From NCBI GenBank assembly GCA_963815115.1, contig CAWFFN010000009.1, forward strand, positions 480,001 through 544,000: a stretch of DNA of 64,000 nt, written 5' to 3'. The stretch comes from an uncultured delta proteobacterium (lineage in GTDB: Bacteria; Desulfobacterota; Binatia; DP-6). A program made the position numbers and the translations under genes. The notes under the pieces are model-generated. The model did not search any database. It was not told the origin of the DNA and saw only the letters and a program-made list of their open reading frames with translations. Below, piece by piece: positions 37,371 to 52,219 of this stretch (position 1 is its first letter; each line of letters starts with the position of its first letter).

Positions 37371-39679
37371 CGACTGCGTCCCAGCCACCACGTGAAGAGC
37401 GCCTTCACCCTCGGCGTGAGCCGCGTCCGGTTGTAAGCGTCGGCGGCCTTCTTCATCACCTCGGCCTGCGTCGGGTAGGGATGGATCGTGCTCCCGATCG
37501 CCCCGAGGCCGATCCCGGCCGTCATCGCCAGGGTGAGCTCCGATATCAGGTCGCCCGCGTGGGTGGCGACCAGCGTGGCCCCGACGATCCTGTCGCTGCC
37601 CGCGCGCAGGTGAACGCGCAGGAAGCCGTCGTCCTCGCCGTCGAGGACCGCGCGGTCGACCTCGCGGAGCGGGACCGTGAGGGTGGTGACGGCGATGCCG
37701 CGCCCGGCGGCATCGTGCTCGGACAGCCCGACGTGCGCGACCTCCGGCGTGGTGTAGGTGCACCAGGGCACGTGGAGGGCGCTCGCCTTCTTCCGCCCGA
37801 AGGCGCCGAAGAGCGCGTTCTGCACGACGATGCGCGCGAGAGCGTCCGCGGTGTGGGTGAACTGGAAGCGCGATGCCACGTCGCCGGCGGCGTAGATGCG
37901 CGGGTTCGTGGTCCGCAGGTGATCGTCCACGACCACTCCCGCGGCCTCGTGGCGTACCCCCGCGGCCTCGAGCCCGAGCCCTTCCAGGTTGGGCGCGCGG
38001 CCGACGCCGACGAGGATGCGATCTCCGACCGCCTCCGACGTGGCGCCGCCCACGCCGTAGCGGACGACGACCTCCGTGCCGCGACGCTCGGCGCCCAGCA
38101 CGCGGGCTCCGTTCACCAGCCGCACGCCGTCGCGCTCCATGCGCCGCTCGACCACCGCCGCCGCATCCGCGTCCTCGCGCGGCAGCGCGTGCGGGGCGTC
38201 GTGCACGACCGTCACCTCGGCCCCGAAGCTCCGGAAGACCTGGGCCATCTCGCAGCCGATCGGACCGGCGCCGATGACGACCAGACGCCGCGGGAGCTCC
38301 GTCAGCCAGAAGACGGTCTCGTTGGTGAGGTAGCCGGTCTCCTCCAGGCCGGGGATGGGCGGAGCGGCGGCTCGCGCGCCCGTCGTGATCACGGCGCGCG
38401 CGAACTCGAGCGTTCTTCCGTCGACCTCGAGCGTGGTCGGGCTCGTGAAACGCCCGCCCCCGATGTAGACGTCGACCCCCAGCTTGGTGAAGCGTTGCAC
38501 GCCGTCGTTGGGCGCGAGCTCGGCGCGCAGGCGGCGCATGCGGGCCATCACGGCGGGGAAGTCGACCTCGACGGAGCCGACCCGGACGCCGAGCTCGCCC
38601 GCCTGGCGCGCGCTCGCGGCCGCGCGGGCGGCGGCGATGAGCGCCTTCGACGGCACGCAGCCGACGTTCAGACAGTCCCCACCGAGGAGGTGACGCTCGA
38701 CGAGCGCGACCTTCGCGCCGAGTCCCGCCGCCCCGGCGGCGGAGACCAGCCCCGCGGTTCCTCCGCCGACCGCCACCAGGTTGTAGCGCCCGCTCGGACG
38801 CGGATTCTGCCGGCCGCCGGGGTGCACGTGCGACAGCAGCGTCCGGTTGAACTCGTCGTCGGGAAGGACGAGCGGCCCGGGCGCGTGGCCGGCGACCGGC
38901 GCCGGGTGCGCTTCCTCGGCGCTGCGTTCGACCGTGGCCTCGTCCAGGGCACGCCGGGCGATGCGCGTGACGACGACCGTGACCGCCACCGTGGCGGCGA
39001 AGCCGAGGAAGGTGAGCGCCTGCTTCGCCGTTCCGCCCGAGGGCGCACCCGAGGCGAGCTGGCTCACGCTCGTGATCAGCGATCCCAGGTAGACGTACAT
39101 GACCGTGCCCGGCACCATGCCGACGAGCGAGCCGATCACGTAGTCGCGGAAGGTCACCCGGGTGAGGCCGTACGCGTAGTTGAGGAGATTGAAGGGGAAG
39201 GCAGGCGAGAGTCGCGTGAGCAGCACGATCTTCAGCCCTTCGCGGCCCACCGCGCGATCGATGGCGGCGAAACGGGCGTTGCCGGCCACGCGCGCCGCGA
39301 TCCGGTCGCGAGCCAGCGTGCGCCCGAGGAGGAACGCGACCGCGGCGCCGAGATTGGCGGACACCCAGACCAGCGGGACGCCCACGGCGACGCCGTAGGC
39401 GAAGCCGGCGCCGAGCGTGAGGATGAGTCCCGGCAGGAGGAGGATGCACGCGATGACGTAGGCGGCAACGAAGACCGCCATGCCGGCGAGCCCGGCGCCC
39501 CGGATCCAGGCGACGAAGCCCAGCAGCCAGTCGTTGACGGGGAGGAGCTTCAGGGCGCCGAGCACCGCGACCAGGACGAGAGCGAGCAGGACGAGGCGGC
39601 CCGTGCCGCCGCCCTGCGGCCGCGCCTCGGGGGATGCGAGCGTCGCTGGTCCGGGCGGGGCGCTCATGGACTCCGTCAT
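37367..39679 (-). CDS. TVP38/TMEM64 (DedA-like) membrane domain fused to a pyridine nucleotide-disulfide oxidoreductase (MerA/Lpd-like)
   Basis: LTRLSPAFPFNLLNYAYG; GGGTAG; GGDCLNVGCVPSK; GAGPIG; HPYPTQAE. Confidence 0.9.
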   Translation of the reverse strand: MTESMSAPPGPATLASPEARPQGGGTGRLVLLALVLVAVLGALKLLPVNDWLLGFVAWIRGAGLAGMAVFVAAYVIACILLLPGLILTLGAGFAYGVAVGVPLVWVSANLGAAVAFLLGRTLARDRIAARVAGNARFAAIDRAVGREGLKIVLLTRLSPAFPFNLLNYAYGLTRVTFRDYVIGSLVGMVPGTVMYVYLGSLITSVSQLASGAPSGGTAKQALTFLGFAATVAVTVVVTRIARRALDEATVERSAEEAHPAPVAGHAPGPLVLPDDEFNRTLLSHVHPGGRQNPRPSGRYNLVAVGGGTAGLVSAAGAAGLGAKVALVERHLLGGDCLNVGCVPSKALIAAARAAASARQAGELGVRVGSVEVDFPAVMARMRRLRAELAPNDGVQRFTKLGVDVYIGGGRFTSPTTLEVDGRTLEFARAVITTGARAAAPPIPGLEETGYLTNETVFWLTELPRRLVVIGAGPIGCEMAQVFRSFGAEVTVVHDAPHALPREDADAAAVVERRMERDGVRLVNGARVLGAERRGTEVVVRYGVGGATSEAVGDRILVGVGRAPNLEGLGLEAAGVRHEAAGVVVDDHLRTTNPRIYAAGDVASRFQFTHTADALARIVVQNALFGAFGRKKASALHVPWCTYTTPEVAHVGLSEHDAAGRGIAVTTLTVPLREVDRAVLDGEDDGFLRVHLRAGSDRIVGATLVATHAGDLISELTLAMTAGIGLGAIGSTIHPYPTQAEVMKKAADAYNRTRLTPRVKALFTWWLGRSR

Positions 39680-39810
39680 CGCCGTCTTCGATGACCACGG
39701 CGGATCGTCGTTCGAGGACATAGCACGCGGCGGCGCGTGCCTGCCAAGCGCTGGTCCCGTGCGCGTCGAGCGCGCGCCGCCCGGGCGCGGCGCGCTCCCG
39801 CGGCAGTTTC

Positions 39811-40545
39811 TCAGGCCTCCGGGGCGTCTCGCCGGACGGGGGTGACCCGGTTCCTCGCGATGTCGAGGTAGACCTCCTCGTAGTCCACCCGATCCGCTAT
39901 CAGACCGTGGAACGCGTTCAGCATCGCGGAGGCGACGGCGAGGTTGGTGAAGAGGAGCTGCGGCGCGCCCGCCGTCGCCAGCCGGCCGCAGCCGGGGGTG
40001 CTCGGGACGACTGCCGGAGCGTCGGCGATCTCCGGATGGTGGCGGGTGAGCGAGCTGGACAGCCAGACGCCGTCCGCGCGCCTGACGACCTGCACGTTGC
40101 CGTAGGTCCCGCTCCGCCCGGCCTCGGGCTCGACGCCGTCGTTTCCGCCCGACAGCAGCACGACGTCGCGCAGGCGCTCCACCGCCTCGGAGACCACCCG
40201 GCGGCTGGCGTGATTGTCGACGGCCAGGAACACGATCTGTCCCTCCCGGATGATCGTCCCCACGTTCTCCGGCGTCACGTACTCCGGCACGGGCTCGATC
40301 GTGACGACCTCGCCGAATGCCTGAGCCAGCTCGCGCGCCATGGCGACGGCCTTGTTCTCGAGGCTCACGAACCGCATTCGGCTCCGGTTGCTCTCCTCGA
40401 ACGCGTCGCCGTCGACGAGCGTCAGGTGGGAGAGCCGTCGCTCCGCGTGCAGGTAGTGGCAGAGGTGGCGCGCGACATGGCCGCCGATTCCGCCGCAACC
40501 GACGACGGTGATCTCAGTAGGACCACGCATATCCGTGCTTGCCAT
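39811..40545 (-). CDS. ThiF/E1-like activating enzyme (E1-b, PRTRC-type)
   Basis: VVGCGGIGG, DGD.FEESNRSR, NKA and AVDN motifs; candidate catalytic Cys in PSTPGC followed by PQL..TN. Confidence 0.88.
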   Translation of the reverse strand: MASTDMRGPTEITVVGCGGIGGHVARHLCHYLHAERRLSHLTLVDGDAFEESNRSRMRFVSLENKAVAMARELAQAFGEVVTIEPVPEYVTPENVGTIIREGQIVFLAVDNHASRRVVSEAVERLRDVVLLSGGNDGVEPEAGRSGTYGNVQVVRRADGVWLSSSLTRHHPEIADAPAVVPSTPGCGRLATAGAPQLLFTNLAVASAMLNAFHGLIADRVDYEEVYLDIARNRVTPVRRDAPEA

Positions 40546-41245
40546 CGGTCCGGCGCTCCTCGACGACCTGGATCCGCTCGAGCCATTCGGGTGGCCATGC
40601 GCGGCTCGCGTGCGCCGGCTCGAGCACCTGCTCCGGGGGGACGGGGAAGCGCGTCCCCGCGACGACGAACGCGGCGTCGAACTCGGGCAACGTCGAATCG
40701 ACGTAGCCCACCGTCACGTGCAGCCCGGTCTCGAAGAGCTCGTCGTGCTCGTCCACCAGGCTGTGGCGCGGGCTGAGCTCGGCGTGGCTGTGCATCGTGC
40801 CCAGCTTCCGCCATTCGGGCCCCGGGCGTGCGCACGGCCCGTAGCTCAGGCGCAGATCGGCGCGAAACCGCCCGTGCTCCACCCGACCGCGAATGGTCTG
40901 GGGCGGCGCTTCGACGCGATAGCGAGCCCGGCGGCCGTCGGCGGCGGGTGCGTAGAACATGAACAGCACGGCCTCGCCCTCCCAGCGATCGTAGACGGAG
41001 CGGAAGAAGCCCAGCGCCGTCTCGACGAGACTGCGGGGCAACCGGCGAGGGAGCCGGAGGTCGAGGCGTGCCTCGTGGGGAAGCAGGCCGGGAACGCCGC
41101 CGTCCACCCGGACCGTCGCAGCATACAGCTCCGTGCGCCGGTCGAGAAAGAGACCATTGCCCGCGATCACGTAGGAGGTGTCGGCGTCGGACGGTGTGAA
41201 CGCGTCGTCCTTCAGCAGCACGGGAAACATCGGCGCTGCGAGCAT
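40514..41245 (-). CDS. JAB/JAMM metallopeptidase (JAB-b, PRTRC protein A-like)
   Basis: Upstream Glu (GEAV) and an exact H-S-H-x7-S-x2-D motif (HSHAELSPRHSLVD); GLHVTVG. Confidence 0.88.
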   Translation of the reverse strand: MLAAPMFPVLLKDDAFTPSDADTSYVIAGNGLFLDRRTELYAATVRVDGGVPGLLPHEARLDLRLPRRLPRSLVETALGFFRSVYDRWEGEAVLFMFYAPAADGRRARYRVEAPPQTIRGRVEHGRFRADLRLSYGPCARPGPEWRKLGTMHSHAELSPRHSLVDEHDELFETGLHVTVGYVDSTLPEFDAAFVVAGTRFPVPPEQVLEPAHASRAWPPEWLERIQVVEERRTDGKHGYAWSY

Positions 41246-41247
41246 CG

Positions 41248-42387
41248 TCACGGCTCCAGCTGCATGAGCGTCACCAGCTGCTCGACACGCTCGACGGGAT
41301 GCCAGGGGGCCACGCGGTCCAGCATGTACTCGAGCGTGCCACCGACGGTGCGGGACGCCCGGCGCCAGTGCACCTGGAGCGCGAAGTAGGGATCGGCGCA
41401 GGTCGCCTCTTCCCACGCGTCCGCGCTCGCAAGTCGCGCGTCGATCGATGCGGCCGACTCCCAGTACGAGTTGCCCTCGTGCATCTCGGCCGAGCGGTTG
41501 AAGGCCGCGTGCCAGAAGTGATCGGTCACGGCCTTCAGGCGAGCAGACGACGACAGCCGACGCAGGCTCCGGTTGCTCAGCGCCACCAGACACACCCAGC
41601 TCTCCTGGTCCTCGTAGGCCGGCGCCTGCGCGCAGTTGAGCAGACAGGTGAAGGAGAGGTGGTCGTCGAGCGACTCGATGGGGGTGCTCCGGAAGAAGGC
41701 CTGCTGCATGCCGGTGAGCATCCCGTCGCGAAGGACCAGGAACAGCACCACCCAGGGGAACGACAGCCGGCGCTGGCGGTAGCGCGCTTCGGCCCCGAAC
41801 GCGTCCGGCGAATCGTCGGCGATCCACCGGACCACGCGAGGGCCCGGAGGCATCTCGATGACTGCCCCGAGCACCGTCCCCCCGGCGCGCTCGGCCATGA
41901 GCCGGACGTTCGGCGGGTGGACGCGCCACGTCGCCGGCCCGCTGCCCGTCGCGACGACCCGGTCGAGCAGATGGCGGACCGGCGTGGAGCCCATCATGCG
42001 ACCATCGCGGCGCCACACGGCGCTCGTGTCGGCGATCTCGATCGCCGACCGGGCGGCCCGCACGGAAGCCTGCGCGCCGGCGCCCTTCTCGCCGGCGTAC
42101 TTGACGAACTCGAGATGCTCGCCCACGGCGAGCACGTGGTCGTCCGGCACCTGACGGCCGCCTACGAGTGCCACGGCGGCGGGATGGATGCCGAAGAGTG
42201 CTGCCGCGATCGCCCGGGCCGCTCCGACGCAGCGGCCGGCGAGATCCAGGTCCTGCACGTCGGCGCCCGCGATCACGCGGACGCGTGCGGCGGCGGCGGT
42301 TCCGGCGACCGCGGGATCGGTGGCGACCGGGTCGGAGGGTGGCGCCTCGAGCGGGAGCGAAGGACGCTGCTGTTGCTGCTGTGTCAT
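41248..42387 (-). CDS. Ubiquitin-like domain (ending ...LEFVKYAGEKG) fused to a prokaryotic E2-like domain
   Basis: Beta-grasp-like segment RVRVIAG...ALVGG...LAVGEHLEFVK.AGEKG; LSFPWVVL, FFR, LLNC...WVCL, FW..AFN; ATGA coupling. Confidence 0.72.
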   Translation of the reverse strand: MTQQQQQRPSLPLEAPPSDPVATDPAVAGTAAAARVRVIAGADVQDLDLAGRCVGAARAIAAALFGIHPAAVALVGGRQVPDDHVLAVGEHLEFVKYAGEKGAGAQASVRAARSAIEIADTSAVWRRDGRMMGSTPVRHLLDRVVATGSGPATWRVHPPNVRLMAERAGGTVLGAVIEMPPGPRVVRWIADDSPDAFGAEARYRQRRLSFPWVVLFLVLRDGMLTGMQQAFFRSTPIESLDDHLSFTCLLNCAQAPAYEDQESWVCLVALSNRSLRRLSSSARLKAVTDHFWHAAFNRSAEMHEGNSYWESAASIDARLASADAWEEATCADPYFALQVHWRRASRTVGGTLEYMLDRVAPWHPVERVEQLVTLMQLEP

Positions 42388-44048
42388 CTCGGAGTTCCTC
42401 CTCGTGCCGTGTGTTCGACCTTGGTCAGGGCCTGGTCCTCGGGCAGGCGACCGGCGAGAGCGCTGCGGACGTTGTCGCGGGTGATGGAGCGACAGCGCTC
42501 GACGAAGTACGCCGTCGTGGCGGCGGTGAGGTCGTCGAGGGTGAGCGGACCGGGCTCCTCGCGGCCGGCGCGGAGATCGCGCTGCGCGAGCCGAGCGAGA
42601 AGCGGCCGCACGACGCCGTCCGCGATCGCGGCCGCCGTTGCGAGGTCGCGCGCTCCGAACGACAGCATGCGGCCGTCGGCGAGCTGCACGCGAAGCAGCT
42701 CGGCGAGCGTGCCGTTGGGCGCGAACACGAGGTCGCTCACGGCTGCCCCGAACTCGCGTGACAGGCGATCGTGAGCCGGCTTCCGGGCGTCCTCCGGGGA
42801 CGCGAGCGGGATCCGGGTGAGGCACTTCGCCACCAGCGTCGCCACCTGCGCCGCGTCCAGGGTGTGCGGCAGCTGCACGATCGGCAGGCGGCCGTCGCGC
42901 GTGAGCGCCGTGTCGAGGTAGCGGTCGGCGAGGTTGGAGATGCCGATCAGGCGGCCCTGTGAACGCGTGAGCAGCGCGAGCAGCGTGTCGAGGACGTCGA
43001 GGTAGCCGCCGTGCAGCATGAAGCCCTGGCTGCGATCGAGGGCGATGGCCTCGAGCTCGTCGATGACGAGGAGGGGCCTCACCCCGGACTCCTCCCAGGC
43101 GCGGTCGAGGGTCATGAAGTCGGCGCGGAGCCGGGCCGCGCCCTCGCCCACCCACTTGGAGAGAAACGACGAAGCGGTCCGCACCAGCGCCGTACCACCG
43201 CGAGCCCGGATGCGATCGACGAAGTAGTCGGCGAGCAGGCTCTTGCCACAGCCCGGCGGCCCGCACAGGACGGCGCCGGCAGCAGCGCGCTCGGCCTCGC
43301 CCAGCAGCGCCGCGTACGCCGGCGATGGCGGGGTCAGGAACAGTCGCTCGAGGCGCTCGATGACGTCGTCGAGGCCGACGATGTCCTCGCGCCGGACCGG
43401 ACGAGGCACGCCCATCTCCGGTGCCGCGGGCCGCTGCGCCGGTCCGAGCCGCCGCGTGACCAGCACCACGTTGCCAAGCGCAAGCCCGCCGTAGCCGAGG
43501 ACGCGGTCCTCGAAGGCGAGCGTGTCCAGATCGACGCTGTCGGCGACGACGCCGAGCAGGCGCGCCTCCTCCTGGCCGGCTTCGCGGAGCGGACGCACCA
43601 GCACGTGGCGGCCGTCGAGACGCTCGCACACGGCATAGGCGGAGCCCCCGATCAGGTACTCCCCCGCCCCGACGACCGTCTGGGCCCCGGCATCGGTGTA
43701 GACGATCTGGCCGATCCCGAGCGTCATGTCGGCGGGCCGCACCAGGACGCGCTCGGTGGGGCCGATCTGCAGGCACACCCGGCCGTTCTGCACCGCCGTC
43801 ACGATGCCACGCAGCTGCGCGCCTCCCCCGAGCATGCGCTCGAGCTGCTCGCGCGTGCCGCTGAGCTCTCGTCGAGCCGCCGCCGTGCGCGTCGCGGCAC
43901 GCAGGAGGCCGTCCGCAGCGGGGCCGAACGCGTCGAAGGCGATGCGGCGCGCCTCGGCCTGGCGCTCCGGCGGAACGTCGGGATCACACAGGACGTCGAG
44001 CAATCCGTCGATGTCGGACGGCGACTCCGTCTTGGCGCGTGACCTCAT
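42384..44048 (-). CDS. AAA+ ATPase, ARC/Mpa (proteasomal ATPase)-like
   Basis: Coiled coil and beta-rich (OB-like) N-terminus; Walker A GPPGCGKS; pore loop LSKWVGE; Walker B IDELE; ISN; TRDGRL; ARC-like insert LRVQLADGR....RDL. Confidence 0.85.
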   Translation of the reverse strand: MRSRAKTESPSDIDGLLDVLCDPDVPPERQAEARRIAFDAFGPAADGLLRAATRTAAARRELSGTREQLERMLGGGAQLRGIVTAVQNGRVCLQIGPTERVLVRPADMTLGIGQIVYTDAGAQTVVGAGEYLIGGSAYAVCERLDGRHVLVRPLREAGQEEARLLGVVADSVDLDTLAFEDRVLGYGGLALGNVVLVTRRLGPAQRPAAPEMGVPRPVRREDIVGLDDVIERLERLFLTPPSPAYAALLGEAERAAAGAVLCGPPGCGKSLLADYFVDRIRARGGTALVRTASSFLSKWVGEGAARLRADFMTLDRAWEESGVRPLLVIDELEAIALDRSQGFMLHGGYLDVLDTLLALLTRSQGRLIGISNLADRYLDTALTRDGRLPIVQLPHTLDAAQVATLVAKCLTRIPLASPEDARKPAHDRLSREFGAAVSDLVFAPNGTLAELLRVQLADGRMLSFGARDLATAAAIADGVVRPLLARLAQRDLRAGREEPGPLTLDDLTAATTAYFVERCRSITRDNVRSALAGRLPEDQALTKVEHTARGGTPR

Positions 44049-45049
44049 GTGTTGCTCCTCGGCTCTCGGTCGAGCACCCAGTAACCCGGTTCCTCCTCGA
44101 CGGTGCCGTCGGGCGTGTATCCGTAGAGCCTGACGACGCGACCGTCGGGGTAGAGGGACACGATCACGCTCGCGGCGAACGGGTCCGTGAAGGTCGTGAG
44201 ATGCGTCACGACGTCGGCGATCGAGATGATCGGCGTCTCGCCGGCCTGGTGGAGGTGCGTGTGCACCGAGCACGTGACGCTCGGCACGTCGGGGGGAGGC
44301 GCGGCCAGGAATTCGGCCCATGATCCCGCGGGAGAGACCACGGTCGAGTCGGTCGCCTCGCCGGCCCGTATCGGGACGAGCCGGTGGAGAATGCGCACGA
44401 ACGTCCGCCGCATGCGATCGAAGCCCACGCGCGCGTGCATCCTGCCGGAGGTCTCGACCCCGCGCGCCCGGCTGGCACGCTCGAGCTCGCCGAAGGCCTC
44501 CACGACGTCGGCGGACAGGAAGGTCGCCATCCACTCCCGGGATGGATTGCCCTCGGCCGTGGCACCGGCCGCGAGCGCGTCGACCGACATCGCCGGGAGC
44601 GCGGGGATGGAGACCCGCAGCGGTGGATCGGCGCACTCGGCAGCATGCAGTGAATAGGCGATCCGGGCGGTCGCTGCGCCGGTGCCGCGTGACGCACCCG
44701 TGACGTGCAACGCGCGCGCGCTCACGAAGGGTGCGAAGACGTCGCGTGGAAACTCGCCGCGGGACACCACCCGCCCGCGATCGTCGCGCAGCTCGACGAT
44801 GCAGGAGTCGAGGCAGAGGGTGCTCCCGTGTCGATCACGGAGCCGGCCGGGGCGGAACCACGCATGAGCCGATTCCGGGATCCCGAGCAGACCGTCGCGC
44901 ACGCCCACGAGCGCGGCCGTGCGCACGAGCCACTCGCAGTGGGGAAGCTCGAGCACGACCACGTCGGCCGAGCTGCCCACCACGAGCGGGAGCGACATGG
45001 CAATGCCGTCCGGCGCGGCGCCGGCGAGCGGCATCGGATGCGCGCTCAT
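44045..45049 (-). CDS. JAB/JAMM domain protein with long N-terminal region (JAB-a)
   Basis: VETSG Glu; SVHTH...ISIAD; F..PF; coupled to both neighbours. Confidence 0.75.
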   Translation of the reverse strand: MSAHPMPLAGAAPDGIAMSLPLVVGSSADVVVLELPHCEWLVRTAALVGVRDGLLGIPESAHAWFRPGRLRDRHGSTLCLDSCIVELRDDRGRVVSRGEFPRDVFAPFVSARALHVTGASRGTGAATARIAYSLHAAECADPPLRVSIPALPAMSVDALAAGATAEGNPSREWMATFLSADVVEAFGELERASRARGVETSGRMHARVGFDRMRRTFVRILHRLVPIRAGEATDSTVVSPAGSWAEFLAAPPPDVPSVTCSVHTHLHQAGETPIISIADVVTHLTTFTDPFAASVIVSLYPDGRVVRLYGYTPDGTVEEEPGYWVLDREPRSNT

Positions 45050-45050
45050 C

Positions 45051-45320
45051 TCAAAGGAGCGCGTTGGCATACTCCGGGCCGATGACGACCCGTCCGCCGG
45101 GACGGACGGCGGTGCCGACCTTCGCCATCCTGGGCAGCTCGTGGCCCTCGTGGAGCGCCGCGTAGCGCAGCGGCTTGTTCGACGCCACGTCGCGGGTGGG
45201 GAGCCGGAGCTTCGGGACCGCGGCGTCGGTCAGGCGCTCGACTGACCAGTCCTCCGGCACCGTGTCGTCGAACGACACGGCCTCGTCGTGACGTGTGAGA
45301 TGAATTGCGATTGCCTGCAT
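45051..45320 (-). CDS. Small ubiquitin-like (beta-grasp, YukD/EsaB-like) protein (Ubl-a)
   Basis: 89 aa with RBS AGGGAGG; VP.D.SV..L......L.LP......Y.....G..L.....VG..V..G..V.I.P pattern; lies between the E2 and JAB genes. Confidence 0.72.
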   Translation of the reverse strand: MQAIAIHLTRHDEAVSFDDTVPEDWSVERLTDAAVPKLRLPTRDVASNKPLRYAALHEGHELPRMAKVGTAVRPGGRVVIGPEYANALL

Positions 45321-45324
45321 GGTT

Positions 45325-45702
45325 TCACCCTCCCTGTTCGGTGTCGGTCACTGCGTCGCCGCCGGCGACGCGAAGATCCATCAGCTCGAGATAGCTGCGT
45401 GCGACGTCCTCGTCGCCGAGCGCGCGCAATCCGCGGGCGAGCTCGTGCACCTCGGCGGCCAGTGCGTCGCGCCCGTCGGGGGCGCACCGCTCGACGAGCG
45501 CGCCCGGGCCGTCGTGCCAGCCACCGGCGCAGCGCCGGAGATCCGCCGAGGCGGCGCAAAGGAATGCCCTCCTCGCGCGATCGACGACGAGGCCGCCCGG
45601 TCGTCCGAGCCTCAGGAAGAGGGGCGCCGTGATGGACGGAAGCGTCGTCGCCAGCACGCCGGCCGTGACGTCGACGATGGGAAGCGGGATCGAAGCGGTC
45701 AT
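45325..45702 (-). CDS. Hypothetical protein within the Ubl operon
   Basis: ATGA overlap with the E2 stop; ends 4 nt before the Ubl start. Confidence 0.65.
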   Translation of the reverse strand: MTASIPLPIVDVTAGVLATTLPSITAPLFLRLGRPGGLVVDRARRAFLCAASADLRRCAGGWHDGPGALVERCAPDGRDALAAEVHELARGLRALGDEDVARSYLELMDLRVAGGDAVTDTEQGG

Positions 45703-46211
45703 CGTGGGTCCGCGGGGTAGAGGGGGCGGTGATCGGCGGGTCCGTCCGGCAGGTGGCTGCGGACGTAGTCGGCGGCGACCGGGTCGACGCAGTGATCGAG
45801 GCGCCGGTTGCGGATCCGGAGGTTGTCGTAGAGCAGCTCGGCGAGCCGGTGCGGACGAACGCCCCGAACGTCGAGGCACAGGCGCTTCTCGCCGTAGTTC
45901 GGCGCGACGAAGTCGAACGGGGTCAGCACGATCGGCACGAGCGCCGCCTCGCGGTCGAACGGCCAGAGCGGCGGACATACCACCACGACCTGGAAGTCGC
46001 GCGTGGCGATGGTCGGGCCGCCATCGGTTGCGACCAGGGTCCGCACGTCACGGTAGTGCAGCAGGACGCCGTCGGCCATGCCCTGGACCTCGAGACGCCC
46101 CTGGGTTCGCCGCGCGTCGTCGTACAGGACGAGGAGCATGTTGGTGAGCGCGCGGCGGCGGATCGCGAGGCGCCCTGCCTCGAGCCTCTCGGTCTCCGGC
46201 CCGAACGTCAT
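45699..46211 (-). CDS. Ubiquitin-conjugating enzyme E2-like protein (E2-a)
   Basis: CPPLWPF (cf. P.xYP), FVAPN.....LCL (cf. FHPN...ICL), DPVAADY, P.D.RPL; ATGA coupling. Confidence 0.78.
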   Translation of the reverse strand: MTFGPETERLEAGRLAIRRRALTNMLLVLYDDARRTQGRLEVQGMADGVLLHYRDVRTLVATDGGPTIATRDFQVVVVCPPLWPFDREAALVPIVLTPFDFVAPNYGEKRLCLDVRGVRPHRLAELLYDNLRIRNRRLDHCVDPVAADYVRSHLPDGPADHRPLYPADPR

Positions 46212-47308
46212 GGGACCTCCGACCATCTGAAGCGCGCGCGCAGCCGCACGACGCCCTTTCGGCCGACGGCGAGGATCTCCTCGCCGGGCCCGCTCCCGAA
46301 CTGTCGCAGCGTGATCGCTGCGACCTCCGGAGCGAGAAGCTCACGAGCCCCGACCTGGGAGCGCGTCGCCAGCGGTCGGCGGGGCTCCGAACAGGAGCAG
46401 CCACGCTCGATGGCTGCGGCCGGCAGCAGCCGGAGGGGCGCGGGCGACACGAGGCGGCAGCGCAGGCATTCCATGCCGAGCATGGGGATGCTCCGCCGTC
46501 CGAGCAGCACGGTCGCATCGTCGCCGGCCTCGGCGATGAGCCGCTCGACGATCGCGCCGACGGTCAGGTCGTCGATCCCGCCGTCGAGTTCGATCACGCG
46601 CGACTCGTCGGGGTGATGTGCGACGGGACAGCCGGGTACCGGGTGCGGTGGCATGCGGATCACGTACTCCGGTCCAGCGGAATCACGCTGGTGACGGCCG
46701 CCGGCCACGGATCGGTCGCCCTCGAGCCAGCGCAGGAGCAGCCGCACGCCGGCGTCGGCTGCTGCCGCGGCGGCTTCGGCCGATGCACGCGGCGCCGTCG
46801 TCTCGTCGCAGCTCGTCGCCGACGCCAGGCGATCCGCGTGCCGCTCCGTCTCCCCCCACAGGCACACGGGGCACGAGGCGTTCCGGCCCGTCGCGAAACA
46901 CCGCACCTGGTATCCGCCGCGAGTCGACTGGTTCCCGCAGGTGAGAACCAGGAGCAGCGGCCCGGTCACGGCGCCGCCCCAGATTGCCTCGACGACGTCG
47001 CGGATCGCGGTGGGATTGTCGAGCGCCAGGACGACGGCGTCGAGCGCGCGCACCAGCCCGGGCCGCACCGTGAAGCGTACGTCGCCGTGGAGAGCACGAG
47101 CGATCGCCCCCCGCGCACGCCGCCGATCCGCGGTGACGACGGCCTTCGGCCGGAAGCAGTCGGCGGCGTCGAAGAGCGACGTGGACAGGTTCTCGGGCAG
47201 GACCTGCTGAGCATCGGCGACGGTGACGGCGATGGACGCCGGCAGCAGCCCGGCGACGCGCGAGCCGATGGCGCCGGCGCCGAAGAGGCCCACCTCCGCG
47301 CCGCTCAC
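46208..47308 (-). CDS. E1-like ThiF-family enzyme with Zn sites and C-terminal UFD-like region (E1-a)
   Basis: FGAGAIG, ENL, PKA, ALDN, CPVC, candidate catalytic TSC, GCPVAH and CLRC...CSC; GTGA coupling. Confidence 0.8.
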   Translation of the reverse strand: MSGAEVGLFGAGAIGSRVAGLLPASIAVTVADAQQVLPENLSTSLFDAADCFRPKAVVTADRRRARGAIARALHGDVRFTVRPGLVRALDAVVLALDNPTAIRDVVEAIWGGAVTGPLLLVLTCGNQSTRGGYQVRCFATGRNASCPVCLWGETERHADRLASATSCDETTAPRASAEAAAAAADAGVRLLLRWLEGDRSVAGGRHQRDSAGPEYVIRMPPHPVPGCPVAHHPDESRVIELDGGIDDLTVGAIVERLIAEAGDDATVLLGRRSIPMLGMECLRCRLVSPAPLRLLPAAAIERGCSCSEPRRPLATRSQVGARELLAPEVAAITLRQFGSGPGEEILAVGRKGVVRLRARFRWSEVP

Positions 47309-47742
47309 GGTGACGCCTCCGGGGTCTCGTCCTGGACGGGCGCAGCGCATCCGGAGCAGGTGATGGCGAGCGTGGCGCAGTCCGTGTGGGCCGGCGCCTC
47401 GCACCGGCACGCCACGATCGGCTCCCCGGCCGCGATCGCGCCGAAGCACACCGCGCACTCGAGCCCGGCCGGCGCCGTCCGCCACTCGCGTGCGGACTGC
47501 CACCGCACCTCCACGCGCCACTCGCCGGCGCGCACCAGCGCCCCGGCACCACGGTCGACCACCCCGAGCCCTCCCAGCATCGGCCGACCATCGATCCGTG
47601 CGCCGGACGGCGGCGCCAGCACGACGGCATCGCCGCCTGTCATGCGGACGAAGCGCAGAACCGGGACCTGGCCGCTGCGACCGACCTCGACGATGTCTCG
47701 CAGGACGAGGGACGCAGCCGGCGTGACGATGACGTGCGGCAT
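47305..47742 (-). CDS. Degenerate FHA-like domain plus C4HC3 RING finger (candidate E3 ligase)
   Basis: C-x2-C-x12-C-x-C-x4-H-x2-C-x6-C-x2-C; N-terminal VGR...ARIDG..M..GL.VV..G..VR.G beta pattern; RBS AGGAGG. Confidence 0.75.
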   Translation of the reverse strand: MPHVIVTPAASLVLRDIVEVGRSGQVPVLRFVRMTGGDAVVLAPPSGARIDGRPMLGGLGVVDRGAGALVRAGEWRVEVRWQSAREWRTAPAGLECAVCFGAIAAGEPIVACRCEAPAHTDCATLAITCSGCAAPVQDETPEASP

Positions 47743-47852
47743 GCCCGACCTCCTAGCGCGCGACGATCACCGTCCGCGCACATTTCGCGGGAAGCGGTCG
47801 CGAGGGAGGCGAAAGCGGCCGGACCTGGGGCCAGCGGGATGCGGAAGAACGG

Positions 47853-48365
47853 CTAGGTGAGGAGCTCGACGAGCCTGCGGGCTCCGCGCCGGGAGCACAG
47901 CACCCAGTCGATCGTCGGCGCGGGCCCCGTGAGCTCGCCCGTGCGCATCCCGCACATCCGCTCGTCCACGTTCGGCACGAGCACGTTGGTGAGCGACACC
48001 AGGATGCCGCGCTGAGCCAGCGCGAACCCGCTCCCGAGGTGGTCCGAGAGCGCCTTCAGCGACGGGCTGTTGGCGCGGAGCGTGAGCCCCTTCACCTCGA
48101 GGAGCCCGAAGATGCGTGACCATGCGTAGTAGCGGTCGTCGCGCGGCGGGACCAGAGCGATCCACGCGGCCTGGACGTATCGGTGCAGCCATTTGCCGGA
48201 GCCCAGGATCGTCACGTCGCCCGTGACCGGCAGCAGCAGTCGCTTGCCCCGGAACGGGCCGGCGAGAGGTGCGGCGAGGATCGTGACGCGTGCCGGAACG
48301 AACCCCTCGCAAAACCTTGCGCCGCAGTGCTCCCAGCGGCCGGGACGGCTACAATCCGTTGACAT
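47853..48365 (-). CDS. Hypothetical protein upstream of the RING gene
   Basis: ATG 48365 after GAGGAG; same strand as the operon; no recognisable motif. Confidence 0.55.
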   Translation of the reverse strand: MSTDCSRPGRWEHCGARFCEGFVPARVTILAAPLAGPFRGKRLLLPVTGDVTILGSGKWLHRYVQAAWIALVPPRDDRYYAWSRIFGLLEVKGLTLRANSPSLKALSDHLGSGFALAQRGILVSLTNVLVPNVDERMCGMRTGELTGPAPTIDWVLCSRRGARRLVELLT

Positions 48366-48606
48366 GTGCGCGGCTCCTCGCCGGATCGACTCGGGCGCAG
48401 CGTCGCACGCGCGCGACGCCACGGCGGCTGACTCACCGGACGACGAGACGTGACGAGATCTACGTGCGATGGCTGCGATGACCGGGCGCCCTGCGGCGCC
48501 GCGGTTCCCCCCTGAGCGCGGAGGACAGCACATATTCTTTCGCACGTCGAGGTTTTTCCACGTGCACGATCACCAGACACGACGCGTCACGAGTCGACGC
48601 CACATC

Positions 48607-48666
48607 GAATCGGCGTGCACGCCAGAACGATCGGCGTGGACGCCGATTCGAACTGGCGTGCACCCG
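48607..48666. promoter_or_regulatory. Three-copy palindromic element GGCGTG[C/G]AC[G/C]C[C/G], candidate operator array
   Basis: Copies start at 48612, 48633 and 48655 (21-22 bp period), between the Xre gene and the Ubl operon. Confidence 0.55.
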
Positions 48667-48670
48667 AGCG

Positions 48671-49675
48671 CTACTCGCCGACGAGCGCCCAGCTCACCGG
48701 CACACGATCGTCGAAGCCGGGATCATCGGAGCCAGACTCCGTCAACGGACGCGAGTAGATTGCCGTGAATGCTCGCATCATGCCGCGCTTGCGCTTCTCT
48801 GGGTAGAGCGCGCTCGCGGACGAGTCATCGCACGCGAGCATCGTGCCCGCGAGCGTCCCGCAACCGCTGTGGCCCATGATCGCGATGATGATGCGGTCGT
48901 CGCCCTCGGATGGACGGCTGTCCGGATTGAAGCGGTAGGCGAAGATGAGCCCGCAGTCCTCGCCCACGTCGCCGCGGCCGACCACGGTGCGGCGCGCGAC
49001 GAGCCTCGCCGATCCCTCCCGCAGTATACCGAGCTCGGCCGTTGCGGCTGCCTCGTCGCTGAACGACGACGCGTGCTTTCGATCCGAGCGGAAACGATAC
49101 GGAAATCCGTCGCGCCGGCTGCGACTCCGCGGCGGCACGCCGAATCCCCGGCAGACCGCGTCCTCGGCGATGGGATTCACGATGGGCGATCCGAGGATGA
49201 GATGGCAGCCGTCGGCGTAGAGCTTCTCGACCCGTGCGGGGTCGTGCAGGGCGTCCATGTGCTCCTGGAAGGTGAACACCACGCCCCGGCCGGGGGGACG
49301 ATTCAGGTACTCGTAGACGTGGAACAGCGCTCGCACGTCCCAGGTGCCGATGCCCTGGCGATCGAGGGGGATCCCGACCGGCTTCCCCTTCACGGACTCG
49401 AGCGACGTCGACCCCACGTGCACGGTCAGCTTCCCGCTGCGGCGGATCGGGTACCAGATGTCGGCAGGGACCGCCTGCAGGAGCTCGTGCAGCTCGATCC
49501 TGAGTGCGGCGCAGAGCTTTCCGAGCGTTTCCGGTTTCACGGCGCCCCAGGTGCCATCGCACAACGCGCTGATCCGCTCGGTGTCGACCGTGCTGAGTTC
49601 GGAGAGCTCCTTCTGCGTCAGCCGGCGCGCGCGCATGATTTCGTCGAGCCGACACACGATGCGCTTCGGTACCAT
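48671..49675 (-). CDS. Cro/Xre-type HTH regulator with C-terminal putative sensor domain
   Basis: RLDEIMRARRLTQKELSELSTV....ISALC......TLGKLCAALRIELHELL; C-terminal LILGSPIVN, DCGLI and IMGHSGCGT. Confidence 0.85.
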   Translation of the reverse strand: MVPKRIVCRLDEIMRARRLTQKELSELSTVDTERISALCDGTWGAVKPETLGKLCAALRIELHELLQAVPADIWYPIRRSGKLTVHVGSTSLESVKGKPVGIPLDRQGIGTWDVRALFHVYEYLNRPPGRGVVFTFQEHMDALHDPARVEKLYADGCHLILGSPIVNPIAEDAVCRGFGVPPRSRSRRDGFPYRFRSDRKHASSFSDEAAATAELGILREGSARLVARRTVVGRGDVGEDCGLIFAYRFNPDSRPSEGDDRIIIAIMGHSGCGTLAGTMLACDDSSASALYPEKRKRGMMRAFTAIYSRPLTESGSDDPGFDDRVPVSWALVGE

Positions 49676-49752
49676 CGATCCCCCCGGCGCTCGTCCACTG
49701 CCCCAAGTGGCCGCGCGGACGCAAGCGGGCGCGTCGTGTCGGCGCGAGACGA

Positions 49753-52134
49753 CTAGGGAATCAGGCCGGCGACCCGGCTCCGCGCCAGGAGCTCGATGGC
49801 GTCGGCGCGGCGGATGGTGGCCCGGATCTCGTCCGCGAACGCGCGCCGGCGCTCGGCCAGCTCCGGCGTGCCGCGCTCGAGCAGCCCGCGGTTGCCCGCC
49901 AGCCGCAGCGCGGTCTCGAAGAGCACCTTGGAGACCGACTCGCCGCTCTGGATGCGGCGCTGCAGGAGATACTGCTTGCCGAGCGCGAGGCAGCGTCCCA
50001 GAAACGCGTTCTGGTCGAACGGCGCGTCCGGGCTCTCGCGCACCAGGGCGTCGGCGACCACCCGGTACGCGTGCAGAAACGGGCGCAGCACGCGGTGCGC
50101 GTTGAACGGCCGGAACGAGCGCACCACCCCCTGGATGGCGGCGGGGCCGCGGGCCAGCGCGGACTCCCACTTGTCGTCGTGCAGCGCGACCTCGTCCGCG
50201 ATCTCCTCGCGGAAGCGCTCCTTGTCGGCGAAGAAGAACTCGAACTTCAGGAGATCGCGGAGCCCCATCGCCTCGTCCCAGAAGGTCTGACGGCGGTGCT
50301 CGACGTGATCCTCGCCCGCGCGCAGCAACGCGATCTCGGCGATGGCGGAGGTGACGAAGAAGTGCACGATGGTGTTGCGGTAGTAGGCCGCGGTCAGATG
50401 CTGGTCGGGCCCGACCGCGTACACGGCCTCCGGCCCCTCGGCGTAACAGGTGACGACGCCGTTCTCGACCAGCGCGTCGAGCGTGCGCTGCACGCTCTCG
50501 GGCGAGTCGAGCCCGAGGTCGACGGTGGTCGGCAGTGCGCGCCGGCGGATGTACTGCACGAGATTCTGCAGCGCGACGAGGATATCCGGGACGCTGAGGG
50601 CGCGGTCGCCGCGGCCGAGCAGCGCCAGCGCCACCAGCGACGTCGGCGTGATCGGCGTGACGCGGTTGATGCGGACGGCCACCTCGAAGGCCAGCTTCTG
50701 GACCGTGAGGTGCTGCTCCTCCGTGTCGTCTCCGGAGAGGTGCTCGGCGGCGAGCGGGTCCGGTGGCCCGAGGGTCTGGGCCAGCGAGATCGGCTTGCCG
50801 AAGCGGATGTAGATGTCGCCGAAACGCGAGCGCAGGCCGCGCACCACCCCGACGAACCAGCCGAAGCTCTCGCGCTCCTTCTTGCCGCCGTGCTGCTCGG
50901 CGGTGTATGAGCCGACGTCCTGGATCTGGTCGTAGGCGATCGCGACCGGCAGCAGGATGACGTCCTCGCTCTTGCCGCGCCGGTAGGCGTCGACGACGTT
51001 GGCGAGGAGCCCGAAGCGCGGCGGCAGCAGCTTGCCCGAGCGCGAGCGGCCGCCCTCGATGTACCACTCCAGGGAGAAGCGCTTCTCGATCAGGTAGTCG
51101 ATGTAGCTCCGCAGCACGAACTTGTAGATCGGGTTGTCCTTGAACGTCCGGCGAATGAAGAACACGCCGCTGCGGCGCACCAGCGGACCGACCGGAAAGA
51201 AGTTCATGTTGATGCCGCCGGCGGTGTGGTTCGGTGGATGGCCGTTCTCGTGCAGCGCGTACTGCAGGACCAGGTGGTCGAGGTTCGACTTGTGGGAGGG
51301 GAGGAAGACCACCGGGGAGCGCTGGGCGAGGGCGTAGGTGCGCTCCAGGTCGCCGCGGTCGTAGTGCAGCGCCTCGGTGTACGCCCGCGTGTAGAGGAGA
51401 TGGATGAGCTGCGCGCTGAGGTCGATGACGTAGGGGCTGTGGGTCGCGGCGATCTCCTTCAGATAGCGCTCCGCATCGCGCTGGGCCGCCGGCACGGGAC
51501 GTCCGACCTGCTGCGCCAGCCGTGCGATCCCGCCGCGGAACGCGGGCCGGGAGACGATGTCCTCGCGCACGAAGCGAGGCACCTTGTAGCGCATCCCGCG
51601 GACGCGGCGCTCGGCGCGCTCGAGCGCCAGACCCGCCTGGCGCGTGACGAAGTCGGCCAGTCCCGTGGTCTCGCCGAGGTCGGCGCCGCCCGCGCGGCGC
51701 CAGCGCTCTCGCAGCTCCGAGGCCAGCGCCGCCTCGCCCGCCACCACCTGGTAGCGGGCCGAGCGCCGCGCGCCGAGCGCCTGGCGCATCCGGCCGGGAT
51801 CCCGCGGATCCCCCAGCAACAGCAGCCGGAGCAGCCGGCGGCGGGGGCCGCCCCGGGCCGGACCCTGGAGCCAGGCCACCCGGAGCGGCGTGAGGAGCGG
51901 GTCGTCGTCCGCCGCCAGGCACGCCTCCAGGCGCCCGTCGAGGCGCGGACGGCGCGGGCGGCGTCGCGTCGGAGGGATCGCGATGATCTCGTACGGGATG
52001 CCCGTCGGGACGTGATGCTCGAAGACCCACTGGCGCAGGATGCGCCGCTCGATGCCGCTGCAGGCGTCGAGGAGAAACACGACGCGCCGGCTGCCGACCT
52101 CTTCCCGGGGCTGCTGTCGGGTCGCTTGCGCCAT
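49753..52134 (-). CDS. plsB: Glycerol-3-phosphate acyltransferase
   Basis: PSHKSNLD (HxxxxD), GVFFIRR, YIEGGRSRSGKLLPP and LPVAIAYD motifs. Confidence 0.9.
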   Translation of the reverse strand: MAQATRQQPREEVGSRRVVFLLDACSGIERRILRQWVFEHHVPTGIPYEIIAIPPTRRRPRRPRLDGRLEACLAADDDPLLTPLRVAWLQGPARGGPRRRLLRLLLLGDPRDPGRMRQALGARRSARYQVVAGEAALASELRERWRRAGGADLGETTGLADFVTRQAGLALERAERRVRGMRYKVPRFVREDIVSRPAFRGGIARLAQQVGRPVPAAQRDAERYLKEIAATHSPYVIDLSAQLIHLLYTRAYTEALHYDRGDLERTYALAQRSPVVFLPSHKSNLDHLVLQYALHENGHPPNHTAGGINMNFFPVGPLVRRSGVFFIRRTFKDNPIYKFVLRSYIDYLIEKRFSLEWYIEGGRSRSGKLLPPRFGLLANVVDAYRRGKSEDVILLPVAIAYDQIQDVGSYTAEQHGGKKERESFGWFVGVVRGLRSRFGDIYIRFGKPISLAQTLGPPDPLAAEHLSGDDTEEQHLTVQKLAFEVAVRINRVTPITPTSLVALALLGRGDRALSVPDILVALQNLVQYIRRRALPTTVDLGLDSPESVQRTLDALVENGVVTCYAEGPEAVYAVGPDQHLTAAYYRNTIVHFFVTSAIAEIALLRAGEDHVEHRRQTFWDEAMGLRDLLKFEFFFADKERFREEIADEVALHDDKWESALARGPAAIQGVVRSFRPFNAHRVLRPFLHAYRVVADALVRESPDAPFDQNAFLGRCLALGKQYLLQRRIQSGESVSKVLFETALRLAGNRGLLERGTPELAERRRAFADEIRATIRRADAIELLARSRVAGLIP

Positions 52135-52219
52135 CCGCGCCGATACTACGACGACTGCCCACCGGGGTGATAGGGCGTCGGTGGCCGAGCCTCGGCGGCG
52201 ACGCTATGCTCCGCGTTCG

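Follow-up and report, generated by a model that had tools for sequence, protein, structure and literature searches.

The DNA analyzed here, hereafter called the window, is a stretch of 64,000 nucleotides from contig CAWFFN010000009.1 of an uncultured delta proteobacterium. A variable insert of 10.1 kb (39621..49754; all coordinates are window positions unless a locus is named) contains twelve genes, G1 to G12, all on the minus strand. Ten of them, G3 to G12, belong together as a conserved unit with translational coupling, and their neighborhood is not due to chance. In reading order, they encode a RING protein (G3), a diverged adenylating enzyme of the E1 superfamily (G4, E1-a), an E2 candidate (G5, E2-a), a small conserved protein (G6), a candidate ubiquitin-like (Ubl) modifier (G7, Ubl-a), a protein with a JAMM-like motif (G8, JAB-a), an AAA ATPase (G9), a Ubl domain fused to a Cys-bearing domain (G10, Ubl-b and "E2-b"), a second JAMM-motif protein (G11, JAB-b), and a compact second E1-like enzyme (G12, E1-b). 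G3 to G8 are referred to as module a and G10 to G12 as module b. Given this gene set and order, the catalytic motifs, the RING, UBC (ubiquitin-conjugating), JAMM, E1, and AAA signals, and the modifier-type C-termini, we regard the cassette as a real and probably undescribed composite variant of the bacterial ubiquitination-like operons.

Because the window has a G+C content of about 70%, the genes were called from a frame plot of third-position G+C (GC3). Minus-strand coding was unbroken from 49675 to 39811, with changes of frame at the proposed gene borders, which bears out the twelve co-oriented minus-strand genes placed at 39811-49675 by an initial annotation of this DNA. The same annotation had the last ten genes joined almost continuously by ATGA/GTGA overlaps or gaps of 4 nt or less, and eight of the nine junctions fit this description. 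Possible 4-nt overlaps of the ATGA/GTGA type are found at G3/G4, G4/G5, G5/G6, G8/G9, G9/G10, and G10/G11; an alternative GTG start of G4 at 47308 gives the overlap with G3, and an alternative ATG start of G5 at 46211 gives that with G4. G6 and G7 are separated by 4 nt, G7 and G8 by a 1-nt gap or joined by a 20-nt overlap, and G11 and G12 overlap by 17 or 32 nt. The spacing is 248-305 nt between G1 and G2 and 110 nt between G2 and G3. A promoter and terminator scan of the locus was uninformative, and the public sequencing runs include no listed RNA run, only soil and peat DNA runs with a small share.

Scans of genome and metagenome contigs yielded 16 related loci, to which the G020 contig was added (17 in total), and the loci were compared by tblastn with all twelve window proteins. 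The order of G3 to G12 was identical in all four loci that are long enough on both sides (L008, L025, L028, and L029), and it was the same as far as the contigs reach in 11 of 11 shorter loci (L007, L020-L024, L026, L027, L030, L032, and L033), with amino acid identities of 30-64%. The gene content and order first proposed for the window (RING, E1, UBC-like E2, modifier, metallopeptidase motif, AAA, Ubl fusion, JAMM, and E1) were upheld, and so was the expectation that this order would recur elsewhere. L031 holds part of G9 only. L009 (6400-11254) is decayed: its RING gene is truncated, E1-a is reduced to 92 aa, the ATPase starts at residue 138, and E2-a, G6, Ubl-a, and JAB-a are lacking; module b is intact. 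G1 and G2 had no tblastn counterpart in any related locus.

The distribution of the cassette is sparse. The G9 ATPase is single copy in the 6.9-Mb genome. A search with it gave a match in 1 of 40 relatives, and a sample of 400 other genomes of the phylum gave none. Its family comprises 63 clusters (50% identity or more), almost all of which are metagenomic. A search of 301 genomes centered on the genome of L008 returned the same matches again; as that genome belongs to the window's own phylum, rarity is claimed here and not cross-phylum spread. A tblastn search of 72,556 plasmids with G10 and G5 gave no match, and a Prok-RING_1 scan of 401 genomes of the phylum gave sub-threshold noise only. 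In three of five loci, a divergent regulator-like gene lies upstream of the RING gene (L008:4324-5646(-), L009:4922-6211(-), and L029:3608-4822(-); 27-37% identity; SorC-like by eye), at the place where the window has its Xre-HTH (helix-turn-helix) gene.

Profile-profile alignment with hhalign gave no similarity between JAB-a and JAB-b, between E2-a and G10, or between Ubl-a and G10, and the two cascades are therefore not recent duplicates of each other. The absence of paralogy would suit a defense-island-like mosaic in which two or three independent systems travel together without acting on each other. The occurrence of module b alone in one contig (L078) and the division of the ATPase into two open reading frames (ORFs) in many relatives, by which parts of the cassette can evidently change, would suit it as well. 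We nevertheless consider such a mosaic quite improbable. The same order is kept in the four complete and 11 partial loci despite identities as low as 30%, the only single-module locus among them is the decayed L009, coding overlaps lie at the module borders (G8/G9 and G9/G10), and the families are similar in size (63 ATPase, 72 E2-a, and 108 Ubl-a clusters).

G3 (47305-47742) encodes a RING-type (C4HC3) zinc finger protein. All eight ligands (C96-x2-C99...C112-x-C114-x4-H119-x2-C122-x6-C129-x2-C132) are invariant in five of five orthologues, and the spacing C-x2-C-x12-C-x-C-x4-H-x2-C-x6-C-x2-C is that of a C4HC3 RING variant. When the family profile was compared with the PDB, 31 matches with E<=1 were obtained, and the best-ranked ones were RING E3s (RNF24, 1.4e-4; Arkadia/RNF165, ~2e-3). 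In Pfam, zf-RING_2 matched four of the five orthologues (best E 0.011) and Prok-RING_1 three, all below the cut-offs; G3 itself scored 18.2 bits against Prok-RING_1 (cut-off, 29.1). Bacterial Prok-RING_1 proteins are reportedly described in Pfam as membrane-anchored. The N-terminal part of G3 is a conserved domain of ~90 aa without family assignment, and the early label "FHA-like" was abandoned after none of the five orthologues gave an FHA match. G3 is a candidate E3.

E1-a (G4; 46208-47350) matches Pfam ThiF at 5.4e-8 (32.7 bits; cut-off, 28.1). Its invariant residues include the glycines of G24xG26xxG29, Asp111, Cys138, Cys181, and two CxxC pairs (160/163 and 295/298), and it carries a C-terminal extension of ~130 aa. 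The matches of E1-a in the PDB (TcdA, UBA7, MccB, NEDD8 E1, and Cap2) are weak and cover the nucleotide-binding part only.

The canonical signature of UBC-type E2 enzymes is an HPN motif with the catalytic Cys 6-8 residues downstream. In E2-a (G5; 45699-46226), the corresponding motif is APN-x6-C117-LD. Asn110 and Cys117 are invariant across 46 aligned homologues, and the E2 motif is present in most of the family, as HPN-x5-8-C in 50 of 72 clusters and as APN-x5-8-C in 13. As the template for a direct comparison, 70 canonical UBC E2 genes carrying the HPN...Cys motif were picked from giant-virus contigs by a motif scan. The G5 family aligned with them by hhalign with a score of 27.0 (P 0.002, probability 14%) over 40 columns in register, in which PPxWPF was paired with YPF, and HPN and CLD coincided. 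None of 150 column shuffles of the query and none of 150 of the template reached this score (maxima 21.0 and 22.2), and seven other families of the operon gave P values of 0.09-0.5 against the UBC templates. Since the templates were selected by motif, the alignment points to local active-site homology and not to that of the whole fold. G5 had no match in Pfam, UQ_con included, and its family profile had no HMMER match in the PDB. The conserved motif and its alignment make G5 a candidate E2 of the UBC type.

G6 (45325-45702), a small conserved protein with a GW-x-DGPG motif, is kept in all loci that reach it. Some relatives carry it as a C-terminal fusion to E2-a, and it is therefore regarded as an E2-a accessory domain. 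The fusion was confirmed in P0088, in which residues 203-320 match G6 at 2e-19, and 14 of the 72 E2-a family clusters have a length (255-321 aa) consistent with it. The idea that G6 itself might be a modifier, prompted by its GG end, was rejected because the GG is not conserved.

Ubl-a (G7; 45051-45320) is a candidate modifier of 89 aa. Its family comprises 108 clusters, none with a Pfam domain, and 103 of them carry the C-terminal motif [E/D/Q][Y/F]-x-N-A; the short tail behind it varies and is LL in the window. The tail after Asn-Ala has 0 residues in 19 clusters, 1 in 37, 2 in 19, 3 in 19, 4-5 in 6, and more in 3. Asn86 is invariant, and Ala87 occurs in at least 90% of the family. No beta-grasp match was found for Ubl-a in Pfam, in Pfam searches of the 108 relatives, in PDB profile searches (best E 1.4, unrelated), or by hhalign with the G10 family. 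Thus, of the label "Ubl" given to this protein at the outset, the part that stands is a modifier-type conserved end with a variable, presumably removable tail; the beta-grasp fold found no support in these searches, and a terminal glycine is absent, the end being Asn-Ala and not Gly-Gly. In the Ubls of Bil systems, as many as nine variable residues come after a conserved Gly (PMC10557695). The tail logic of Ubl-a resembles that of the Bil Ubls so described, but with Asn-Ala in the place of Gly. Ubl-a forms a new small family whose conserved end and variable tail are typical of a processed modifier.

The gene next to it, G8 (44045-45070), encodes a protein of 341 aa with a long N-terminal region and a JAMM-like motif, in which Glu206, H270-T-H272, and S283-x-x-D286 are invariant. 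The insert between HxH and SxxD varies in length, from 10 residues in the window to ~39 in relatives. Its label as a JAB protein draws on these residues and has no support from profile searches: Prok-JAB matched none of seven orthologues, the PDB gave no match, and hhalign detected no resemblance to G11 and its family. Judging from motif and position, G8 is a candidate peptidase for the processing and deconjugation of Ubl-a.

G9 (42384-44048) is a classical-clade AAA ATPase of 554 aa (Pfam AAA 5.7e-13, 49.9 bits). The motifs of a classical AAA unfoldase are all present: Walker A (GPPGCGKS at 263), the pore loop (KWVG at 298), Walker B (LLVIDE at 326), and the arginines of the second region of homology (RDGR at 384). 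In the PDB, the family profile matched the D2 domain of p97 (1.4e-25) and Mpa/ARC (3.6e-15). As the latter match extends from profile position 24 to 483, the N-terminal region of G9 is ARC-like too, and the initial designation of an ARC-like ATPase is supported. The full-length match supports a layout of coiled coil, OB, and AAA domains. Scores against the NCBIfam equivalogs pup_AAA, PAN, and CDC48 are 37-46 bits, far under the cut-offs of 500-800, and give no support for membership at that level. The genome has a single PF00227 match, and therefore no 20S pair is evident. G9 is a candidate unfoldase or segregase.

In one branch of the cassette, two overlapping ORFs take the place of the single ATPase gene, the break lying after residue ~416 (L024:54-1657, L025:10001-11625, and L026:3224-4848, and also in L007, L027, and L031-L033). 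The second of them has a start codon of its own and encodes ~125 aa, equivalent to the C-terminal region that forms part of G9 in the window. Among the 63 ATPase family clusters, 28 have a length of 460 aa or shorter.

G10 (41248-42387) consists of Ubl-b, a variable linker, and a Cys-bearing domain of 260 aa (C-domain). Ubl-b covers residues ~30-102 and ends with LEFVKYAGEKG, the family form being LEFVK-x-AG-x-KG. A full HMMER scan of 1.84 billion representatives found 2117 relatives of G10 (E<=1e-3), either fused or stand-alone (~270 aa). The fold of Ubl-b was assigned through relatives with tandem repeats, which match the G10 profile at positions 30-98 and score 43.2 bits with ThiS (cut-off, 22.5) and 42 bits with TGS (cut-off, 22.2); a stand-alone Ubl relative in L076 scores 23.7 bits with ThiS. 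The AG-x-KG motif closes each repeat and each stand-alone form, and the stand-alone Ubl of L078 ends with KGV. A beta-grasp fold with a conserved C-terminal Gly is thus ascribed to Ubl-b transitively; G10 itself has no Pfam match. Two of the relatives, P0238 (212 aa) and P0243 (277 aa), contain three and four head-to-tail N-domain repeats, respectively. They are poly-Ubl proteins, in which each repeat ends with EFVK-x-x-G-x-KG, like a polyubiquitin precursor.

In the C-domain, Cys266 and His290 are invariant, and Cys266 is retained in at least 90% of 40 diverse superfamily members. These 40 members gave no Pfam or NCBIfam match for the domain, no significant PDB match was found (best E 0.042, unrelated), and hhalign showed no similarity to UBC (P ~0.5). 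The label "E2-b" first attached to this domain therefore has no counterpart in detectable UBC or Pfam-family similarity. In L029 (11663-13012), an insert of ~70 residues lies in the linker between Ubl-b and the C-domain, and it fits a dispensable linker downstream of a cleavage site.

G11 (40514-41245) carries a canonical JAMM motif, and Glu91 and H152-S-H154-x7-S162-x2-D165 are invariant in six of six orthologues. Prok-JAB matches all six (best 5.8e-5) and DUF2016 four. An N-terminal alpha+beta domain with conserved Arg82 and Trp88 precedes the motif. The matches of the family profile in the PDB were nonsignificant and to unrelated proteins (best E 0.88). G11 is a candidate protease that would free Ubl-b after KG.

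The C-domain of G10 may not be an E2, because it shows no similarity to UBC and because no JAB or E1 match was found in the 18-19 kb around its relatives in L076 and L077. These two loci are from another family of the same phylum, and in both (L076:9665-12448 and L077:7945-10716), a classical AAA ATPase of 584-599 aa with the pore loop KWVGE directly precedes a stand-alone homologue of the C-domain. The ATPase of L076, the only copy of the two that was scanned, matches Pfam AAA at 8.8e-21. A ThiS-scoring Ubl ending with AGEKG lies ~6 kb from the C-domain homologue and adjoins a thioesterase-family gene. With G11 and G12 of the window as tblastn queries, no JAB or E1 match was found within 18-19 kb around the C-domain relatives. 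Together with the lack of similarity to UBC or to the Pfam families of prokaryotic E2s and with the 4-nt overlap of G9 and G10, this arrangement beside a different AAA ATPase speaks for a reading in which only module a conjugates and the C-domain is an adaptor, a substrate-delivery factor, or a regulator of the ATPase. Ubl-b, JAB-b, and E1-b would then serve to control the ATPase and not to tag third-party proteins; the release of Ubl-b or its adenylation could, for instance, be the means. This reading appears unlikely to us. In L078 (a contig of 4.6 kb), the functions of module b stand alone in the order Ubl, C-domain, JAB, and E1, with no ATPase on the contig, and this order matches the Bil type (PMC11601603). 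Moreover, Cys266 is invariant and followed by a conserved His, as described for the E2-like proteins of "6d" operons (PMC1779556).

E1-b (G12; 39811-40545; 244 aa) matches Pfam ThiF at 1.8e-16 (60.5 bits; cut-off, 28.1), and its Cys186 is invariant. Both G4 and G12 thus combine a ThiF score above the cut-off, a GxGxxG motif, and a conserved Cys as the candidate catalytic residue. Against the PADLOC models, G12 matched the E1 part of Cap2 (2e-9) and BilD (0.0086). Its best solved relatives are Uba4 and MoeB (~3e-6). This similarity, the weak matches of E1-a to MccB and TcdA, and the ThiS scores of the Ubl-b relatives raise the question of whether the E1-like enzymes and the small proteins serve sulfur transfer or the synthesis of a cofactor or a peptide natural product, with chemistry like that of ThiS, MoaD, or MccB. 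Such a function is very improbable here. The cassette has no biosynthetic enzyme; its RING, its UBC-type E2 motif, its two JAMM-motif proteins, and its unfoldase have no place in such pathways; housekeeping ThiF/MoeB genes (231-287 bits) are located elsewhere in the genome; and Ubl-a ends with Asn-Ala, not with the Gly-Gly of sulfur carriers.

Two further observations concern distant relatives of E1-b on plasmids. On a plasmid of Rubrobacter marinus (NZ_CP045122.1; L228:4081-6849), a hypothetical protein of 282 aa, a protein annotated as Mov34/MPN/PAD-1, and a ThiF protein follow one another as the G10 C-domain, G11, and G12 do. The E1 of this trio matches the G12 profile (3.8e-26) and its JAB the G11 profile (9.6e-7), and the 282-aa protein was not detected by the G10 profiles. 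The search with E1-b also found ThiF proteins on plasmids of Bacillus thuringiensis.

The remaining two genes of the insert lie upstream of the RING gene. G1 (48671-49675) encodes an Xre/Cro-type HTH protein of 334 aa (Pfam HTH_26 9e-9, 35.9 bits; cut-off, 22) with an uncharacterized C-terminal region of ~260 aa. It is a candidate regulator, local to this genome and outside the conserved cassette. G2 (47853-48365), likewise local to this genome, encodes a hypothetical protein of 170 aa, with a GC3 of 0.85 in the called frame and no match in Pfam, NCBIfam, or PADLOC. No ParB-like gene was found among the 12 proteins by Pfam.

The insert has sharp borders in comparison with same-genus genomes, where the homology of the flanks (~77-84% nucleotide identity) ends at 39620 and 49755. 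In the same-genus genome G002, the flanks (plsB-like; 36.3-39.6 kb block) are only 3.2 kb apart, and in G001, a kdp-like operon and further genes (by eye) separate them by 16 kb. The inter-flank space thus measures 3.2, 10.1, or 16 kb across these genomes. Neither a tRNA nor flanking direct or att-like repeats were found at the insert borders. The flanks themselves (36291-39620 and 49753-53650) are housekeeping genes: a GPAT/PlsB-like acyltransferase (Pfam GPAT_C 2.4e-83) and a HAD-acyltransferase fusion on one side, and, by eye, a DedA-like membrane domain fused to a pyridine-nucleotide-disulfide oxidoreductase and a zinc alcohol dehydrogenase-like gene on the other. The idea of a defense hotspot was rejected on the basis of the alternative same-genus cargo, which consists of a kdp-like operon, a methyltransferase, and a deoxyhypusine-synthase-like gene (by eye), and the surroundings give no pointer to phage defense. 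Horizontal acquisition of the 10.1-kb insert is part of the model favored below and shares its standing, which is that of a joint estimate for the whole: somewhat probable.

Here, we propose that G3 to G12 act as one protein-modification machine, in which two unrelated Ubl modules flank a classical AAA+ unfoldase, and on balance we favor this reading with some reserve. In module a, G8 would trim the tail of 0-5 residues from Ubl-a and expose the C-terminal Asn-Ala, which G4 would adenylate. G5 would then bear Ubl-a as a thioester through Asn110 and Cys117, helped by G6, and the C4HC3 RING of G3 would steer the transfer of Ubl-a to targets. In module b, G11 may cleave G10 after AG-x-KG to yield free Ubl-b, G12 (Cys186) may activate it, and the C-domain of G10 (Cys266) would be its E2-like carrier. 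Finally, G9 is predicted to engage proteins bearing one or both modifiers, leading to their unfolding or extraction from complexes. We infer the peptidase function of G8 and the E2 function of the G10 C-domain in this scheme. A tag-and-unfold mechanism is plausible; its individual biochemical steps, the coupling of tagging to unfolding, and the division of labor between the modules are all predictions drawn from the sequences. In a more specific form, which we put forward only as a possibility and rather doubt, the cassette would be a bacterial ubiquitin-plus-segregase pathway with an evolutionary origin separate from that of Pup, with two orthogonal modifiers on separate cascades and an ARC-like unfoldase that reads doubly or sequentially marked proteins. 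One modifier would be the new Ubl family, activated at its Asn-Ala end and attached by the RING E3 and the UBC-type E2, and the other a ThiS-like Ubl set free from its own E2-like carrier. As to the biological role, we would place conflict or antiphage defense first and stress proteostasis second.

Several points weigh against the proposed machine. In module a, the RING matches of G3 all fall under the Pfam gathering scores, the E2-a of the window itself reads APN and not HPN, Ubl-a has no beta-grasp match, and we know of no Ubl that ends in Asn-Ala. G8 has no profile or PDB support, and its motif spacing is noncanonical and variable. In module b, the C-domain of G10 has no similarity to UBC, Pfam, or NCBIfam families, and the missing JAB and E1 matches around its relatives in L076 and L077 count on the same side. 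As to the ATPase, its C-terminal residues are not conserved in the family consensus, a protease gene is absent from the cassette, and PF00227 has only one match in the genome. As no paralogy between the modules was detected by hhalign, synteny is the sole sequence link between them, and one relative holds a decayed copy (L009). A defense function finds no backing in the flanks and the alternative cargo, which are housekeeping genes, or in PADLOC, which recognized no defense system among the window proteins when run as the check that the initial annotation had called for. Among the domain labels of that annotation, Xre-HTH, E1-a, AAA, and E1-b passed the Pfam cut-offs; RING, E2-a, Ubl-b, and JAB-b are backed by weaker or indirect tests, and JAB-a, E2-b, and Ubl-a by motif or position.

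If the proposed machine is real, it would make a bacterial RING E3 and a bacterial UBC E2 of canonical motif accessible at the bench, and the known modifiers would gain a family whose Asn-Ala terminus is unprecedented. It would also tie Ubl tagging genetically and directly to an AAA unfoldase, which is the central logic of the ubiquitin-proteasome and Cdc48 pathways, and the cassette may thus be a bacterial counterpart of such tag-and-unfold pathways. Under the dual-modifier form, it would be the first prokaryotic system to couple RING-dependent Ubl tagging to ATP-dependent unfolding and could provide a natural two-key signal for degradation or disassembly. The Asn-Ala-ended modifier family and the hard-wired unfoldase are its most unusual single features. 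The proposal is testable: the invariant Cys117, Asn110, Cys266, Cys186, RING ligands, and JAMM and Walker B motifs are targets for mutation, and the conserved NA and KG ends define the predicted mature modifiers.

The ubiquitination-like operons of CBASS (an antiphage signaling system based on cyclic oligonucleotides) Cap2, Bil, and Bub have recently been shown to conjugate proteins. Eukaryote-like E1/E2/RING/Ub operons in some bacteria were reportedly noted by Burroughs, Iyer, and Aravind in 2011. RING-containing bacterial operon families have been predicted and are still uncharacterized (PMC10557695). A full-text literature search retrieved no bacterial operon in which a RING-type cascade is combined with both another cascade and an AAA ATPase; supplementary tables were outside its scope, so an earlier computational listing is possible. 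The Caldiarchaeum-type operons (Nunoura 2011, PMC3082918; Hennell James 2017, PMC5654768) reportedly contain E1, E2, RING, Ub, and Rpn11, matching the five functions proposed for module a. Module a differs from them in a Ubl-a that ends with Asn-Ala instead of Gly-Gly and for which no similarity to ubiquitin or beta-grasp proteins was detected, in the lack of Pfam UQ_con, ubiquitin, or JAB matches, in the extra E2-associated domain G6, in a RING protein with a soluble N-terminal domain, and in its junction with an AAA ATPase and a second cascade.

For module b, the order of Ubl, Cys-bearing E2-like domain, JAMM, and E1 is that described for the antiphage Bil operons (BilABCD, types I and II; PMC10557695, PMC11601603). 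The conserved C-terminal Gly of Ubl-b with its removable sequence is a further likeness, as is the existence of tandem multi-beta-grasp relatives. Membership in Bil is not borne out by sequence, since the PADLOC BilD score of G12 is only 0.0086 and G10 and G11 match no PADLOC model; the PDB matches of the G10, G11, and G12 family profiles include no Bil-named chain. Module b also differs from Bil in the fusion of its Ubl and E2-like domains and in its single-domain ThiF E1 of 244 aa. In the "6d" operons of Iyer, Burroughs, and Aravind (2006; PMC1779556), Ubl, JAB, and E1 are accompanied by an E2-like protein that lacks the classical His and has a conserved His after the Cys, and an Arg and a Trp are conserved in the alpha+beta domain with which the JAB begins. 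By this published description, which is the basis of the comparison, LLN...C266...H290 of G10 and R82/W88 of G11 are similar. Module b had initially been called PRTRC-like, and E1-b does align in full length with PRTRC_ThiF (4.2e-15). The designation is not sustained against the NCBIfam entries for the cassette (TIGR03735/03736): the scores are 55.7 bits against a cut-off of 144.75 for PRTRC_ThiF and, for G11, 13.9 (E 0.029) against 101.8 for PRTRC_A, which place the module outside the system, and neither G10 nor the 40 superfamily members matched PRTRC B or C in the NCBIfam comparison. In type I Bub operons, too, a Ubl-E2 fusion precedes the JAB and E1 functions (PMC11601596, PMC11601603). 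Bub is described there as using oxyester (serine) intermediates and a DUF6527 serine protease, whereas the candidate catalytic residues here are invariant cysteines (Cys266 and Cys186) and no DUF6527 match was found in Pfam, which sets module b apart from Bub. Type II CBASS (Cap2/Cap3) is likewise distinct, with no CD-NTase found among the 12 genes and only the Rossmann part matching the PADLOC E1-E2 models (G4, 7e-5; G12, 2e-9).

With respect to the unfoldase, G9 differs from Mpa/ARC, PAN, and Cdc48/p97 in its low identity, in that no 20S pair is evident, and in its nonconserved C-terminal residues. It resembles them in the classical AAA core, the KWVG pore loop, and the Mpa/ARC match that includes the N-terminal region. 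The sparse, island-like distribution of the cassette as a whole is similar to that of the mobile Ub-like operons described by the Aravind laboratory (PMC3417536).

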